Positions 4,696 to 51,300 of a stretch of 64,000 bases of DNA are shown here, one piece after another; positions within the stretch are counted from its first letter, which is position 1; every line of letters starts with the position of its first letter. Source of the DNA: Octopus vulgaris (lineage: Eukaryota); contig OX597815.1 in NCBI GenBank assembly GCA_951406725.2, forward strand, positions 1,860,001 through 1,924,000, read 5' to 3'. The notes below the pieces were generated by a model, which ran no database searches, was not told the origin of the DNA, and worked only from the letters and a program-made list of their open reading frames with translations. The translations under genes were made by a program, and so were the position numbers.

Positions 4696-5920
4696 TAATA
4701 TGTTTGAGTTGATTTGAGTGTGAATATGGGGGTCACAGTTGTATTGCCTCAGTGGAGAATTTGTCCGGCCTTTAAGTGTGTCCATGACACACAGGATTCT
4801 AGCAAGAATGCTGGATCTTGGTTATTGACACCAGCAGACATCAGTAAATAATTTGTTGGCTGCTTTCTATAAACAAGGGCCTGTACTCTTGTTAGATTCC
4901 TTGATCCAGGCATAGATTTGACTGAGGAGGCATACAATAAAGTTGAAATACCACATATCTCAAAACCCCGTTACATCAATGTACTACCTGTGTTATAAGC
5001 ACACATTGTCTAAAGGGAGGAGATGTTCTCCAACAAAGAAACACAACAGTAATCAGATGTTCTGCAAGAACATCTTGGATACACTGATTACGATGATAAT
5101 TAGAGCAAAAATCTTCTGATTAACGATTATCGTTTATGAAGAAATTTTGCCATAAAACATTTATTCTGTTGGAGAATTTAACCAAATAAAAAAATGAAAA
5201 AAATTGCAACAAAAAAATAAAAAGAAGATAGCACTTTTCTTAAAATGGCAACTTCATTGATTAACGCACCAATTAGAGACAGGTAGTTTCTTTAAAATTA
5301 GTTATCTAGTTTACAGTGTGCAGGTGTGCCTCCTTCACAGTGAAATTTCCGATGGCAAATTTTCTCAGGACAAAAATGTTTCTGGTGAGTTTTCCAGACT
5401 TGTTTTTCCTGCACTAACCACACTATGCTAATCCTTCATCACCAGAACTGCATCCCACTGGAAACTCCTCTCCACTTTTGTCTCTCCTTCCTGCAGGTGT
5501 TGATTTGTGACAATTTAAGTAGAACATTAATGGTATGAAGCTCACCATGCCAGAGAACATAAGGGATCACCAAGTAAAAGAACAAAACAAAAAAAAAAAC
5601 TAGAAAGTAAGCAAAAATGTAAACTGAAACAACTGACAACCGAATGGGGGGGGGGATGGAATCTGTGTTGTGATATGAAATTTATGCAAATTAAGGAGTT
5701 GGATATAGAATAGTGAAAGGAAACCAAAAACTTTGTTTAATTGACACAGAGGTCACGAGTGAAAAAAAAAAGATCCTGGCAACTAACATTTAACAACATG
5801 AAGGGTTGACCTAGTTTCCTATCATTTATCCCAGAAAATGTCAGCACCACTTGTGTAAGGGGTTGGGCAAGAAGATTTGAACTTTGGGTCATTAACTCAT
5901 TAAATAGTGTGTGTGTGTGT

Positions 5921-9075: not shown

Positions 9076-10369
9076 GGAGGTGATGTTCATTAAAGATTTC
9101 CCTTGACCCACTTCTTGTAATTGCAGGAAACGGAACTTGTACAGGTATAACCATACATGTCTCTACATGTCACATTGTAAATTGCAGCTTTCCACCAGTA
9201 TTCGTTTGTTTTTTACGGCTGCTGAAGTGGACTTAGGTGTTATAATGGAGGCAGGTGAATGCAGATCAGTGACCAGGTTCTTATACTTGAAAGGTCATTC
9301 GCCAAAAGAAACTTTTGATAAGATGAAAGAAGTTTATGGTGATGATGCACCATCATAGAATGTAGTCAAGCACTGGCATCGCCAGTTCAAATGTGGTCGG
9401 ACATTGGTGGAAACTGCTCCTGTTCCTGGACGACCACATTCTTCCATTGATGATGACACCATCCATAAAGTGGAAGCTGCCATTTTGGAGGATCACCACA
9501 TTCAGCAACTAGCCCAAGAAGTGAAGACAAGCCTAGGGTCCATGGAAAAAAATCATTCACGACCATTTGCACATGCGGAAGTTGCCAGCACAATAGATTC
9601 CCCGGATGCTCCCACCTTTTCCGAAGCAGGAATGAGTCCATTGCCCCCAAGCTCTTTTGGCAATGTGCCAAGAAAATGAGGAGGACTTTTTTTGGCAGAT
9701 TTATCACACAGGATGAAGCATGGGTCCATCACTATGATCCTGAGACTAAAGTCCAGTTGAAGCAATGGAAGTATGATAACTCACCACCTCCAAAGAAGGT
9801 TTGTGTTCAACCCTCAGCAGGCAAGGTGATGCTCACAGTCTTTTGGGACCAGAGCGGAGTAGCGATGAAGGATTTTCTGGCAAAGGGTACCATAATTAAC
9901 AGGGAATATTATGCTTCTATGTTGCAGAAATTGCAGAGAACCATCAAAGCAGAGAGGCATGGCATGCTGACAAAAGGAGTCCACCTCCTCCAAGACAACA
10001 CCCCAGTTCTCAATGAGCATGTTGCCCAGATGAAAGCACCCTCCTGCAGCTAAGAAATCCTTCCTCATTTCCCCTTTACTCTCCCGACCTTGCACCATCT
10101 GCTTTCCACCTCTTTTTAGCCATGATGTCCTTTTTTGAAGAGGAAGCACTTTTTGGATGATGATGGACTTATTTGTGAGGTAAAGTCTTGGTGCCAGATG
10201 CAACCTACCGACTTCTACAGGTGAGGTCTTTACACCTGCATAAAGTGATGGGAGAAGTGTGTCACCATTGGTGGTGGCCATGTAGAGAAGGAATAATAAT
10301 TATGCCAGGTTTTGTTTATCCCAGTCCTTGGGAAGTGGGTCAGGGGAAATCTTTAATGAACACCCCTTG
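9076..10369 (+). mobile_element. mariner (Tc1/mariner) DNA transposon, ~1.3 kb, decayed
   Basis: TIRs TGTTCATTAAAGATTTCCC(T/C)TGACCCACTTC at ~9084-9114 and inverted at ~10332-10362; TA flanks. Confidence 0.9.
9245..10296 (+). pseudogene. mariner transposase pseudogene (stops and frameshifts)
   Basis: HTH region MEAGECRSVTRFLYLKG...PGRP, then ITQDEAWVHHYDPETK, KVMLTVFWD, LLQDN and YSPDLAPS(A)FHLF across several frames. Confidence 0.9.
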
Positions 10370-18984: not shown

Positions 18985-19384
18985 TGACTTGTTTCAGTCA
19001 TGTGACTGTGGCCATGCTGGAGCACCGCCTTTAGTCGAGCAAATCAACCCCAGGACTTATTCTTTGTAAGCCTGGTACTTATTCTATCAGTCTCTTTTGC
19101 CAAACCACTAAGTTACAGGGACGTAAACACACCAGCATCGGTTGTCAAGTGATGGTGGGGGGACAAACACAGATACACAAACATATACACACACATACAT
19201 ATATGTATATACATATATACGACGGGCTTCTTTCAGTTTCCGTCTACCAAATCCACTCACAAGGCTTTGGTTGGCCCGAGGCTATAGTAGAAGACACTTG
19301 CCCAAGGTGCCATGCAGTGGGACTGAACCCGGACCCATGTGGTTGGTAAGCAAGCTACTTACCACACAGCCACTCCTATGCCTG
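18985..19384 (-). mobile_element. Family B SINE, full length
   Basis: Reverse match to family B. Confidence 0.85.
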
Positions 19385-29115: not shown

Positions 29116-29574
29116 TGTAACAGCTTGGTGATAACATTCTCTAATATAGGGGAGCAACAACTGGTTGTTCACTGCAGAACAGTGTAGAGCTAACAGTGAA
29201 TATAAAGAACAGTTTTGCATACAAAAAGTACAGAGTAAAAGTATTGGCTTACTCAATATGCCTGTGCTTAACTATACAAGCTTCATGCAGATGGCGGACT
29301 GAGAAAATTTCCAGAACTATATAAGAGATACTGATATTTTTGTCTATATGTCACAGACCCTCCCAAAACCAGACACCAATATCTAAGTAATGATTGTCCA
29401 AGCATAATTGATTGGTTACTTATGAAGAAAACCAGACAAAGGAACTGATCCCCACAAACTATGAAGCAACAAACACTTTCCAGTTTGGGGATATGGTTAA
29501 GAGTGCGGGCTACTAACCCCAAAGTTCCGAGTTTGATTCCAGGCAGTGACCTGTATAATAATAATAATAATAAT

Positions 29575-31400
29575 GTCGAAACACTAGCCATTAACAAAGT
29601 AGCACCAACAATTATAAAATACATAGGACACTCTTTGAATAAATGGCAGACAGTGCTACAGCTCCAAACAAAAGAGGGACTCGTGAAAACCAAAACCATC
29701 CCCATTAGAAGAGGAATATTCCAGGGAGACACACTCTCTCCACTCCTTTTCTGCTTGGCACTGTCACCTCTATCTGATATGCTAAATAGAACTGGATGCG
29801 GATATAAATGTTACGGTAAAACGATCAGCCACCTTTTATATATGGATGACCTAAAACTATACGCTACAAATGACAAACAGCTGGAAACACTACTAAAGAC
29901 AGTTCATGGATTTACCAAAGAAATAGATATGAAATTTGGATTAGAAAAATGTGTCAAAGTAACCCTGAAAATAGGAAAACTAGTTAAGAGTAGCAACATC
30001 ACACTAGATAAAGGCAATGAAATAAGAGAATTAGACCAAAGCCAAACTTACAAATATTTAGGAATCCATGAACTAGATAAGACACAACACACACAAATGA
30101 AAGAAAAAATAAAAAAAGAATATTATAGACGAGTTAGATCAATACTAAACACAGAGCTCAATGCTAAAAACAAGATAATAGGTATTAACACTTTAGCAGT
30201 CCCAGTTATAAGTTACAGCTACAATATCCTTAACTGGACACGAAATGAACTAACCAAAATAGGCAGGAAAACAAGAAAAATACTGACAGGATCTAGGATG
30301 CATCACCCAAAATCTGACATAGAAAGACTATATATACAACGTATAGAAAGTGGTAGAGGCCTTATAAAGTTGGAAAACTACTATAAAATAACCACCATAG
30401 GACTGCAAAAATACCTACTTCAGAAGCAAGGAAAACTGATACAAATAGCGGCAAAACACGAGCAAAACAAAAAACTGTTCTCAGTATTTAAGGAAGCTGA
30501 CAAATACAAATAATAAATCATACCACCTAATAAACACAAAGAAGAAGAAGAAGAAGATGAAGAAACAACAAAAGTTATAAAACAAATGAAATCCAAACTA
30601 AAACTAGAACAGCAACGGACCATGATAAAACGATGGCAAGAAAAGCCCCTTCATGGTAAATACTAGACTAAACTAAATGCAAAAGAAATAGACAAAGAAA
30701 AATCCCAGCAATGGTTGAGAAGCTCAGGACTCAAAGCAGAGATAGAGGGATTTTTAATTGCAGCACAAGACCAAAGCCTCCCCACCAGAAATTACCAAAA
30801 ACATGTAATGAAAAGAAATATAACAAGTAACTGCAGAATATGTGGAGATGGACAAGAAACAATAAATCATATTATCTCTGGCTGCCCAGTCCTGACTAAG
30901 AAGGAATATATTCACAGACATGACAGAGTTGGGACCTACATACACAGGAAGCTATGCCAACATTATGGAATAACTACAGAAAAAAGATGGTATAGGCACA
31001 CACCAGAAAAGGTCACAGAAAACGAGAAAGCAACCATACTCTGGGATATTCCAATACACACAGAGGAGAAATTAAGGCCAACAGACCAGATATAGTTGTC
31101 AGAAATCACGAAGAAAAAAAATGCTTTCTAATTGATGTATCAATACCAGCAGATGACAACATGTCTCTAAAAGAAATGGAGAAACTTTCAAAATACAAAG
31201 ACCTGGAAATAGAGGTAACCAGAATGTGGAATCTAAAAACAGAAACAATCCCTATCATAGTAGGTGCATTAGGCATGATAAAAAAATATTCAGACAAATA
31301 CATAACAAAAACACCAGGACTTACAAACACATATAACATGCAGAAAATTGCACTACTAGGCACTGCACACATCCTACGCAGAACACTTTCCATACAATAA
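29575..31400 (+). pseudogene. RT-RLE ORF pseudogene (in-frame stops near 30511 and 30663, frameshift near 31065)
   Basis: ORF track pieces 29461..30513, 30715..31095 and 31161..31400. Confidence 0.85.
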
Positions 31401-31497
31401 CCATCAGAGCATCACAACAAATCACAGCACATACCCAAGGCATTCAGAGCTGCGCTCGGTAGTGAAGTGAAAGCACGATATAAAAATAAAACTACTG
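29575..31497 (+). mobile_element. 5'-truncated R4/Dong-clade non-LTR retrotransposon (RT, CCHC, restriction-like endonuclease) in (TAA)n
   Basis: GIFQGDTLSPLLF, YMDD (29839-29850), KYLG, CRICG..ETINHIISGC, RHD, RPDIVV..LIDV..K..KY; (AAT)n on both sides. Confidence 0.9.
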
Positions 31498-31501
31498 AAT
31501 G

Positions 31502-31541
<40 letters not shown>

Positions 31542-32596
31542 CATCGAAAAATGCCTTAGGAATGAGAACCCAGGATCCAAATTTCCCCAAGACACCTGAT
31601 GAAGGCTGGAGGGTAAATCAAACGAAATATTGTGTTAACAACAAACAAGATGAGGACAAATATCCGTCAAATGCAAATAATGTAAACACTTTCCATTTTA
31701 TAAGAATGAAGGACAACCCCAAATTATGAGACCAAAATTCACAATCAAGCACGGCATTTGCATTATCAGCTGCCCATTTGGCCATCACTATGGTGTGGGA
31801 CAAGGCCTGCAATTTTGGGGAAGAAGGGGACGTTGGTCATATTTCCAGTTCAGGGTTTATCAATCACTCATCATCATTGTCACCATCATCACAATCAACA
31901 CCACCACCTGGACGCATGCGGTTGAGATGCATGTTTCTTACCACACAGCCACACCTGTGCCTACTGGTGTTTGGACCCTCAATTGACATGAAATTTGTCT
32001 GGTCACTTGGAAACAAGTGAAGGTTGGTGATAGGAAGGGCATCCAGCCATAGAAAATCTGCAATGTGAAATAAAACGCCTTGCTCAAGGGCACAACAGGC
32101 CACCAGGAACTGAACTCATGATCTTACAATTGTGAACTGAATACCTTACCCATTAAACCACGCTAAGCTGGGACTTAAAACCCTGAGAAACTTGACATAA
32201 GAGGACTAAAATGACATCATAATTAAAACTGTGTTACGCAAAATACACTTTGGAGGCTGGATTTTAGATGAGGGTGGGTGGAGGTGGACTGACTAATTGA
32301 GAGGGGTGGGCATTGTTTTGTTAAGTAGTATTGTCTATGGTATATCCAATACTACTTAAACGTAATGCTTAAGACTCATCCAATCCATCCACCCCCTCGT
32401 TGCTGGCAGGAGCGCTATGTTTACAGTTTAAGTACAATATCTGAGAAAGCCAGCTATCTCCATTCATTTCCTGTTAAATAATTACTTCCTCCTATTAGCT
32501 GACTTCACCAGCAGAAGCATTATTATTATTCACTGGTACCAACCTCGTATATACAATCTTTTTCACACACTCTTCTGTGTATATATATATATATAT

Positions 32597-32785
32597 ACGG
32601 GAGTAAGCACATAATTGTGAAACAAGGTGGAAAAAAGAGTACTCAAATACCAGAGGTAGAGTAATATGCGTTATTTAAAAGCAGCAGAAATAAAACAAAA
32701 GCTGTTACTCAGAGCTTCACGTTCCCGTTCGTCAGAAACTCTGAGTAACAGCTTTTGTTATATTTCTGCTGCTTTTAAATAAAGT
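32597..32785 (-). mobile_element. (TA)n-embedded fold-back element with hammerhead
   Basis: Arms 32671-32718 and 32735-32782. Confidence 0.75.
32701..32735 (-). ncRNA. Type I hammerhead core (5' stem I strand lost at the inversion)
   Basis: CTGACGA-ACG(GGAA)CGT-GAAG-CTC(T)GAG-TA; the inverted arm retains GAAA-CTCTGAG-TA. Confidence 0.65.
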
Positions 32786-39883: not shown

Positions 39884-40241
39884 ATAATAGAAATATTAAA
39901 ATTACTAAGTCTCTCTAAAAGAGAACACGGCAGCGTTCCTGGAAATTAATAGTTATCGCCATACTAATATGGCATTCTTATAAAAATAAGAATAAAGCTG
40001 TCCGCTTATTAGCTCCATGAGGCCATCGCCTTAAGTTAGCTATTTGATACACAAACTGTATCCATATAACCTTCGAACAAGGTTATATGGATACAGTTTG
40101 TGTATCAAATAGCTAACTTAAAGGCGATGGCCCTCATGGAGCTATAAGCGGCAGCTTTATATCTTATTTTTATATTAATAAGCTAACGGACAGCTTTATT
40201 CTTATTTTTATAAGAATGCCATATTAGTATGGCGATAACTA

Positions 40242-42335: not shown

Positions 42336-42538
42336 TCAAAATAAGCAACAAGTATATCTTGGGTAATTTGGTACAATCGTTTCATTCTACTTCATTTTGT
42401 ACCAAATTACCTAAGATATACTTGTTGCTTATTCAGATTATAATCACCCCTATGGATTGATATGGATAATACCATACAAAATTCTGGTGCTTGTGACTTA
42501 AGTACCATATTCATCTGAATCTAAATTTTGCTGAACTT
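42335..42538. mobile_element. (TA)n-embedded fold-back element, same family as 25184-25342
   Basis: Arms ~42340-42377 and 42397-42433, then a ~100-bp tail. Confidence 0.75.
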
Positions 42539-42989: not shown

Positions 42990-43831
42990 AATACTTATAA
43001 TAGTATTTTAGTGTTTGTCGTCAGACAATAGTGTGCATCTGACACCAACAATAACCGAAAAACACAGAGCAACTGAAATGGTACGAAAATGTCCCACACT
43101 TATTTCTCTTTCTTTCAGGAGATTGATAAAGAAACAAAAACAAAACAGAAGAAAAACCTCCTTACTTGTAACTAAATCCAATAAATATTTACCTCTGCCT
43201 GGAATAGTTGAAAGGAAATGTTTGAAGTTTATTGGAAGCAGTCTGCTGTTGTCAGATCAAACGACAATTATGACTGGTTAAGATAAAATGTTTGACACCA
43301 ATGTTGAAGAAGAAGTTTTCAACTTTGGAAAATAACATTAGCCACAAAAAGAAATCAATATCTCTCCATTAAAGAAGAGACCTGCTCAAAAGATAAGATC
43401 ATTTTGTCATTTAAACCATTAGAGAAACTCTCAACAATAGCTTTCTGGGTTTTTTTTTGCCTTTTTCCTGGTAAATAAATATTTTTATTCTTTACTTTTA
43501 CTGGTTTCAGTCAGCAGGCTGTGGCCATGCTGGGATGCAATAAAAATAACATTTTCGCGAATCAAAACTTCTAAACCAAACTCTGAATATATAAGTCGCA
43601 GTTCCGGTCTTTTATTTGTTTCTGTCATTAAACTGCAGCCATGTTGGGACACGACCCCTTGAAGGATTTTTGCTGGGTGAATTGACTCCAGAACTTCTTT
43701 TTAAAACCTGGTACTTACTGTATCAGTCTCATTTGCTGAGCCACGAAGTTATGGCGACATGAACACACCAATACCAGATGCCAAGCGGAGGCAGGAGACA
43801 AACACACACACACGCACACACACACACGCAC

Positions 43832-43865
<34 letters not shown>

Positions 43866-43867
<2 letters not shown>

Positions 43868-44342
43868 AAAATTATAAATTAGGGTATCTACGAGATACCA
43901 CCATGCTGAAAATAGCAGCCATGATCTGACTCTAAAACCACCTTAATTGTCCATATATATGTATGTATACATTCGTATATGTAAGTATTCGTATGTTGTA
44001 TTTATATATATATATATATATATATGTATTTATGTTTCTCTTCTGTGTGTATTCTACTGACGAGGCAAAGCATTCCTAAATGCAAAGTCAGAAATCCGGG
44101 ATCTAGAATTATCCAGTAATTTTTTACTAGTTTCATCTTGTCTCTTTGTTATCTCTCCGTGTTCATATATGGACAATTAAGGTGGTTTTAGAGTCAGATC
44201 ATGGCTGCTATTTTCAGCATGGTGGTATCTCGTAGATACCCTAATTTATAATTTTAATAATTATTACCTTTGAAGGTTACTTTTTCCATGCAGGCTACTT
44301 GATAAAATCGTTATTTTATTTTAAATTAACGATCTTATCCTT
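43866..44342 (+). mobile_element. Fold-back element with intact hammerhead, inside the central microsatellite of a family B SINE
   Basis: Identical 93-bp inverted arms 43866-43958 and 44165-44257; family B halves at ~43610-43810 and 44360-44520. Confidence 0.85.
44051..44109 (+). ncRNA. Type I hammerhead ribozyme
   Basis: Stem I ATTCTA/TAGAAT; CTGACGA; stem II GGC-aaa-GCATT(CCTA)AATGC-aaa-GTC plus extra A; GAAA; stem III TCC(G)GGA; AUC cleavage after 44103. Confidence 0.8.
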
Positions 44343-44715
44343 ATATATATACACACATATACAAAGGGCTTCTTTCAGTTTCCGTTGACCAAATCCACTC
44401 ACAAGGTTTTGATCAACCTGAGATTATTGTAGAGGACACTTTCCCAATGTGCCATGCAGTGGGACTGAACTTGGAACCATGTGGTTGGGAAGCAAACTTC
44501 TTACCACACAGCCATGCCTGGGTGTATGCAGTCACGCCTGTCGTTTAAGTTCATAAAAAATCAAATCCTCATTGATGTTTTCGAGTGTCTTTTCCTGAAT
44601 GGTAACACTCAGATGGATCATCAAAGTCCACCTCGGTTCTTAACTGAAGTTCTCCTCTCTTTGGTGTGTTGCTAAAAGTTAGCAAAGTGGGGAGAGTTTT
44701 GGCTGTTACACTGTC

Positions 44716-48747: not shown

Positions 48748-48940
48748 TCAGCAAAGCTAATTCAGTGTCAACTTGTCTCACCTAACGATGTTATTTTCTG
48801 CCAGCATGTTATGACTTTCAAGTCATTTCTTTTTTTGTTTTTCTTTTTGAGAAGACCAAAAATGGCTTGAAAGTCCTAACATGCTGGCGGGAAATAACAT
48901 CATTAGGTGAGACAAGCTGACACTGAATTAGCTTTGCTGA
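48748..48940. repeat. Inverted repeat, ~81-bp arms
   Basis: 48748-48828 pairs with 48860-48940. Confidence 0.85.
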
Positions 48941-50915: not shown

Positions 50916-51300
50916 AGGAGGAGCTGTGTGGTTAGAAGTTTGCTTCCCAACCAAATAGTTCTGGGATAAGCCCCACTGCATGGCACCTTGGGCAGGTGTC
51001 TTTCTTACTATAGCCTCAGGCCAATCAAAGCTTTGTGAGTGGATTTGATGGAAATTGAAAAGAAGCCTGTTGTATAAATGTGTGTGATTGTCCCCCACCA
51101 TCATCACTTGGCAATGACAGTTGATGTGTTTATGTCCCCATAACTTAGTGGCTCAGCAAAAGAGACTGATAGAAAAAGTATCAGGCTTAAAAAGGTAAAA
51201 ATAAGTACAGGGGTTGATTCATTTAACTAAAAATTCTTCAAAGTAGCGCTCCAGCATGGTCACAGTCTCGTGACTGAAACAAGTAAAAGAATAAAAGATA
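50916..51300 (+). mobile_element. Family B SINE
   Basis: Match to family B. Confidence 0.8.

Follow-up and report, generated by a model that had tools for sequence, protein, structure and literature searches.

Does a hammerhead motif framed by two perfect inverted arms within an octopus SINE mark an active ribozyme, and by what route did it come to lie there? The locus belongs to a 64,000-nt stretch of the Octopus vulgaris genome (contig OX597815.1), which is called the window here and whose own numbering is used throughout. The initial annotation regarded the motif as the best candidate for an active ribozyme in this DNA. Our analysis points to a different answer. With a probability of roughly 78%, we conclude that the insertion is a 5′-truncated, 5′-inverted copy of a dispersed non-coding hammerhead repeat of ~490 nt, that it was copied into the microsatellite of the SINE, likely by a Penelope-like reverse transcriptase-endonuclease, and that it is likely a dead end, its single hammerhead being predicted to misfold.

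The insertion had been placed in the central (CA)n/(TA)n tract of a SINE, and this location is confirmed by its flanks, which match the left and right halves of a SINE present in further copies in the window. Both halves lie adjacent to each other at positions 19060-19372 and 50923-51290. The minus orientation of the host SINE was judged by eye from the tRNA-like head at its right end; ARAGORN found no tRNA gene in the 64-kb window. A Pfam search for a host gene, covering 68 of the 290 open stretches of the window, placed only a transposase and a LINE fragment above the cut-offs.

Several other features were observed in the window. A Mariner-type transposase fragment (PF01359) occupies positions 9469-10050, and a broken non-LTR retrotransposon (RVT_1, zf-RVT) with (AAT)n runs occupies 29449-31730 and carries a hammerhead-like core near 31597 in its 3′ region. 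Two further hammerhead-like motifs of unrelated sequence are present at 4922 and 33416. Near-perfect short inverted repeats at 40017-40137, 42336-42437 and 48779-48909 give sub-threshold matches to Rfam miRNA models.

The two arms of the insertion (43866-43958 and 44165-44257) are each 93 nt long and 100% complementary, with 0 mismatches in 93 nt, as had been claimed. They are not the ends of the insertion. The element extends for 87 nt beyond the right arm to a 3′ end at ~44344, and the left arm falls outside the unit, most family copies matching the window only from ~43950 to 44344. The arms arise because part of the element’s own body is present a second time in inverted form: the insertion consists of a 393-bp direct piece (43952-44344) and, at its 5′ end, an inverted 93-bp piece of the same unit. 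Each piece stops at one of two recurrent 3′-end positions of the family, the direct piece at site B and the inverted piece at site A (Table 1).

Perfect inverted arms around a short non-coding core could also be expected of a DNA transposon, for example a MITE, whose terminal inverted repeats are 93 bp long and in which the hammerhead would be present by chance. We regard this explanation as scarcely credible. In addition to the 87-nt extension past the right arm, copies of the element are 5′-truncated and partly tandem, and the arms vary in length and position between loci and are absent from 36 of 55. The fixed terminal inverted repeats of a MITE or DNA transposon are ruled out by this copy anatomy.

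Table 1. Features of the insertion and its host SINE, in window coordinates.
Feature	Position	Strand	Basis
Host SINE body, left half	43471..43797	- (orientation by eye)	3 other window copies at 72-80%
(CA)n microsatellite of host SINE, left target flank	43798..43865		TRF match 43798-43863
Inverted, 5′-truncated unit piece	43866..43958	-	Complementary to 44165-44257; outer end is the family’s 3′-end site A
7-nt microhomology at the inverted/direct join	43952..43958		Sequence compared with the unit in loci L024 and L093
Direct, 5′-truncated piece of the ~480-505-nt unit, 3′ end at site B	43952..44344	+	Alignment with family loci
Outer extension of stem I, 44043-45 with 44114-16	44043..44116	+	93.5% of cells paired, 56 distinct rows, no two-sided change
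Type I hammerhead, predicted cut after C44103	44051..44109	+	Rfam match, structure parsing, covariation
Predicted OFF helix, core 44057-61 with 44087-91	44057..44091	+	Pair probabilities 0.97-0.98; also in fold of whole insertion
7-bp hairpin, then AT-rich site A (likely reverse transcription start)	44224..44257	+	Fold z -2.0; end pile-up
Hairpin and site B (second likely reverse transcription start)	44301..44344	+	Fold z -5.2; 33/77 true ends
(TA/CA) remainder and head half of host SINE	44345..44513	- (orientation by eye)	14 other window places at 71-86%

The unit from which the insertion derives is circularly permuted, non-coding, 478-505 nt long and 29% GC. In tandem loci L024, L061 and L093 it continues from 44344 through a linker of ~100 nt back to 43952. 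No ORF is present in the unit, its longest open frame being 66 codons, and in circular form the unit is predicted to pair with itself (z -4.5 relative to 40 shuffles). Two hammerheads are arranged head-to-tail in a few loci (L061, L161, L165 and L151) and not in the window copy; no locus was seen with more than two hammerheads in tandem or with three or more units in an array. Subfamilies that are 93%, 84% and 80% identical to the window copy were distinguished, together with a still older subfamily that has the same layout.

The exact head of the hammerhead from the youngest subfamily has 215 matches in the 2.8-Gb genome versus 15 for a reversed control, which argues that the hammerhead occurs beyond chance. 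A 3′ word of older copies has 605 exact matches, and a variant with an extra purine after the core has 273, versus 0 in both controls, although the two sets share some loci and exact motifs fail to detect diverged copies. Because of these missed copies, and with 4027 candidate loci in the genome (40 of which were scored), a total of more than 1,000 hammerhead copies is a fair floor. A comparison of the window insertion with contigs of four sequencing runs was dominated by other copies of the SINE and of the family, and none of the contigs listed bridged a junction of this insertion; the comparison did reveal the family in runs under four organism codes, three of them DNA-like and one guessed to be RNA. 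In a separate set of four runs that we guess to be RNA, contigs cover parts of the unit, without indicating start, end, strand or level. Among the papers listed in literature searches, none deals with this repeat family.

The hammerhead at 44051-44109 has the parts that were first described: a stem I of six base pairs (44051-56 with 44104-09), the core segments CTGACGA (44057-44063) and GAAA (44091-44094), a stem III formed by UCC and GGA, and an AUC site ending at C44103. Stem II is in two parts that are separated by a 3x3 purine loop. A feature that had escaped mention is an extra A at 44090, between stem II and GAAA, owing to which the G10.1-C11.1 pair does not lie directly before G12 in the window copy. 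The extra A precedes GAAA in 124 of 127 parsed family copies, and no such variant between stem II and G12 appears in the accessible portions of PMC3088659 and PMC4209133. Stem III of the window copy is palindromic with a loop of 1 nt, and throughout the family it is a palindrome whose loop has one nucleotide or none. The proposal that this stem is of dimer type is thus sustained, since a palindromic stem III with a tiny loop characterizes dimer-type hammerheads in the available text of PMC4209133.

In a 141-nt search the motif matches Rfam model RF00163 at 23 bits (E 0.001), compared with a gathering score of 34, and the hammerhead is absent from the 40 Rfam matches of the whole-window search. 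The window hammerhead is identical to the majority sequence of the youngest subfamily. In an alignment of 56 distinct rows, pairing holds for 96.4% of cells in stem I, its outer extension and stem III, and a two-sided change is seen at one pair of stem I; these rows were chosen with stem I motifs, and their cells are not independent events. A count over 129 copies, made with anchors that left the tested stem I pair free, yielded U-A 71 times, C-G 29, A-U 23, U-G 3 and unpaired nucleotides 3. A distal pair of stem II switches between A-U and U-A (77 versus 13). Position 7 varies freely among C, U and A, and 0 of 11 core positions differ between subfamily majorities, a depletion that is not significant (Fisher p 0.16-0.19). 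The covariations represent about three events, not many. This covariation across subfamilies, with the Watson-Crick pairs U-A, C-G and A-U all present at a single position of stem I, supports a genuine type I hammerhead fold and indicates that selection maintained this fold in the source lineage.

How family copies end was surveyed in 55 loci taken in positional order (60 were drawn from two motif sets and 5 overlapping loci were dropped). These loci comprise 95 pieces, of which 18 run on into the linker and 77 have true 3′ ends: 35 at site A (~44257), 33 at site B (~44344) and 9 elsewhere. A hairpin precedes each of the two sites, and the one at 44224-44257 differs between subfamilies at 0 of its 14 stem positions. 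Dinucleotide repeats abut 60 of the 68 ends at sites A and B, and pieces on both strands are present in 19 of the 55 loci. Partly tandem copies, inverted pieces at the 5′ side, two fixed 3′-end sites and targets in microsatellites are together the marks of Penelope-like insertion. In the accessible part of 10.1101/2021.04.23.441226, the hallmarks of Penelope-like elements (PLEs) include truncated copies, partial tandems, inversion at the 5′ end and insertion into microsatellites. Moreover, an anole PLE is described in the available portion of PMC11167929 as using two internal start sites in vitro, with nicking and extension of both target strands.

We infer by analogy that the partner enzyme is encoded by a PLE. 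The genome carries a young family of Penelope-like elements whose RT plus GIY-YIG ORFs are intact (765-781 aa), and this family shares no DNA similarity with the repeat unit. A search for an autonomous partner with a related terminal repeat found real DNA similarity in 0 of 30 GIY-YIG loci, 27 of which belong to one family and all of which come from the 150 loci scored among 6136 candidates. The RT/GIY-YIG ORF of an autonomous PLE was not found in family copies, and 3 of 164 family loci have an endonuclease fragment nearby. At one locus (L188:3317-3565) a GIY-YIG fragment directly follows the site B end of a family copy, and is probably an independent insertion into the same microsatellite.

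The young autonomous family, represented by L125:1293-3590 (G000:C16), has a CxxC pair before the endonuclease, and we take it to be Neptune-like on this ground. Its copies are 91-98% alike and end in (AT)n, and a simple scan revealed no canonical hammerhead in them. PLEs are known to retain a 5′ intron, and a canonical splice-donor hexamer at window positions 43979-43984, upstream of the hammerhead, recurs in all subfamilies. A second inverted-arm element in the window (32612-32784), located by (TA)n at 32785 and carrying CTGACGA on the minus strand, may be another PLE-type repeat.

The RNA that was copied into these sites may have been circular or linear. In 101 of 101 copies no inserted base interrupts the sequence at the cut-site bond, and two one-base insertions were found there by a genome-wide search that had no control pattern of equal form. 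Because 101 of 101 copies are unscarred, we conclude that the template was continuous at the cut site, either uncut or re-ligated. Template jumping across cut RNA is not supported, as no scar is seen in these copies. The cut site is not a common starting point of genomic copies: a pile-up of 5′ ends at this position, tested in three ways, amounts at most to a weak excess. Three of ten long copies begin within about 4 nt of the cut site, and in a search for cut-site junctions five of seven matches (one of them ambiguous) were without the upstream motif versus two of three at a control position.

The same element and enzyme could have operated without any circle: a tandem master locus, or the terminal repeat of an autonomous PLE, would be transcribed into linear RNA that serves as template uncut, with a hammerhead that acts slowly or only occasionally. 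This is a serious possibility, albeit one that we judge to be less probable than a circle. It accommodates the fact that every copy was read through an uncut hammerhead, that seven of the ten long copies continue beyond the upstream cut site for 45-170 nt, and that no array longer than two hammerheads was seen; unprocessed RNA was also the main substrate of the anole element in vitro, according to the part of PMC11167929 available. Against it stand the 18 run-on pieces, all 18 of which enter the same non-coding linker and none an ORF. A fixed linear master would be expected to produce recurring differences between the halves of tandems and drift over a lineage depth of ~20%, neither of which is seen.

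In 38 tandem pairs (L024, L075 and L015 being counted twice), the two halves differ at 336 of 4547 sites (7.4%), versus a median of 13.3% to other copies, and no directional difference is seen more than three times. Because the halves are alike and lack a recurring directional difference, we conclude that each lineage remakes its tandems from one unit. A circular RNA template would be the simplest account of this likeness. A linear template transcribed from a homogenized satellite array that is missing from the assembly would fit as well.

The insertion had been called young on the strength of its arms. In relative terms this assessment holds, in that the window copy is 2.3% from the column majority and ranks third of 79 loci (median 4.7%), making it fair to describe the copy as relatively young. 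It does not extend to a very recent origin: the copy has five private substitutions, all outside the arms and confirmed as rare in the contigs of four runs, and its best match among 29 other loci reaches 96% identity. The lack of a private change in the arms has a p value of about 0.04, before allowing for the locus having been picked by its arms, and the mismatch-free arms possibly reflect luck or arm homogenization. Arm-arm mismatches in simple inverted loci are roughly 2-12%, in line with decay. Arm identity would thus serve as a rough clock, which alone can mislead because the long near-perfect palindromes of L024 and L075 share private changes. These palindromes (L024:1481-2982, with 1 mismatch in 387 sites, and L075:908-2695, with 0 in 319) could represent later inverted duplication, gene conversion or an assembly artefact.

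That the locus was inserted very recently and produces an active ribozyme, either as a monomer or as a dimer in trans, would be in keeping with the complete core equal to the subfamily majority, the 6-bp stem I, the rank of the copy and its clean arms. We consider this very improbable, given the private substitutions and the 96% identity of the best other locus. Also, no second hammerhead is present in tandem and no sense promoter was identified. The predicted fold argues in the same direction. The active monomer fold is predicted at -4.8 kcal/mol versus a minimum of -9.3 kcal/mol, i.e. 4.5 kcal/mol above it, and the active double fold at -24.3 versus -30.5 kcal/mol, 6.2 above; these energies represent secondary structure only and ignore tertiary contacts and help from proteins. 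A competing helix between the core and the 3′ strand of stem II, which we term the OFF helix, is kept in the predicted dimer. Its probability is highest in the youngest subfamily, where the median is 0.96 over 69 copies versus 0.67-0.70 in older subfamilies.

This prediction is compatible with activity, because cutting by the hammerhead of the anole PLE required its protein in the experiments described in the accessible text of PMC11167929. One of nine predicted dimers cleaved in the work of Li et al. (bioRxiv 10.64898/2026.07.22.740005), as far as the available part of that preprint reports. Nevertheless, with one hammerhead, no tandem partner, a core predicted to be trapped and a host SINE in the opposite orientation (by eye), the case for the best candidate is weak, and modelling suggests that the window copy is a poor candidate for ribozyme activity.

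For the reading that we prefer, a truncated and inverted copy made by a Penelope-like enzyme, the following cycle is proposed. Rare tandem loci with two hammerheads would be transcribed, and a double hammerhead formed by both motifs would set free a unit-length RNA. This RNA would then be ligated to a circle, a step to which we assign slightly better than even odds. A Penelope-like enzyme would nick AT-rich DNA, and cDNA would be primed from both target strands at RNA sites A and B, where ends are observed and priming is presumed. The two cDNAs would meet at a microhomology to yield a direct piece and an inverted piece. In the resulting monomer, the 1-nt loop III and the OFF helix are predicted to prevent renewed cutting.

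A more speculative version of this cycle, which we think unlikely, would make the element a retrozyme that passes through circular RNA and whose hammerhead can be switched. Owing to the extra A, the core could bind the 3′ strand of stem II, the resulting lock would be strongest in the youngest subfamily, and only a Penelope-like protein or a tandem partner would open it. If true, the insertions would preserve, like fossils, the past activity of a PLE enzyme that copied a single RNA circle from the two strands of a nick.

Among known systems, the octopus family most resembles animal non-LTR retrozymes, as they are described in the accessible portions of PMC7229834 and 10.64898/2026.07.22.740005. 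Like these, it has a non-coding, low-GC unit with one type I hammerhead each, partial tandems, many solo copies, coexisting autonomous PLEs and a unit predicted to be self-paired as a circle. Its unit of 478-505 nt is above the usual 150-450 bp given in these sources, yet within the 51-972 bp of Li et al. Unlike typical retrozymes in the same texts, it has at most two hammerheads in tandem, with no array of three or more, almost all of its copies are truncated and a third have inverted pieces. By the definition of Li et al. in the available part of 10.64898/2026.07.22.740005, by which an active retrozyme has two hammerheads, the window copy is not one.

Endonuclease-positive PLEs, as presented in the available portions of PMC4209133, 10.1101/2021.04.23.441226 and PMC11167929, differ in that the octopus repeat is without an RT-GIY-YIG ORF or detected homology to PLE terminal repeats. 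The two 3′ ends of the family are ~87 nt apart, versus 30-40 in the PLEs of these sources, and the extra A between stem II and G12 sets its hammerhead apart from the PLE hammerheads in the accessible text of PMC4209133. From its unit and its rare two-hammerhead loci, the repeat appears to be a new family of the animal non-LTR retrozyme type, of which the window copy itself is an ordinary member, one of more than 1,000. Mobilization of animal retrozymes by Penelope-like enzymes that copy circular RNA has been proposed, not demonstrated, in the available portions of the retrozyme and PLE papers cited here, and the octopus family supplies natural two-hammerhead loci, two mapped start sites and graded hammerhead variants with which this proposal can be tested.
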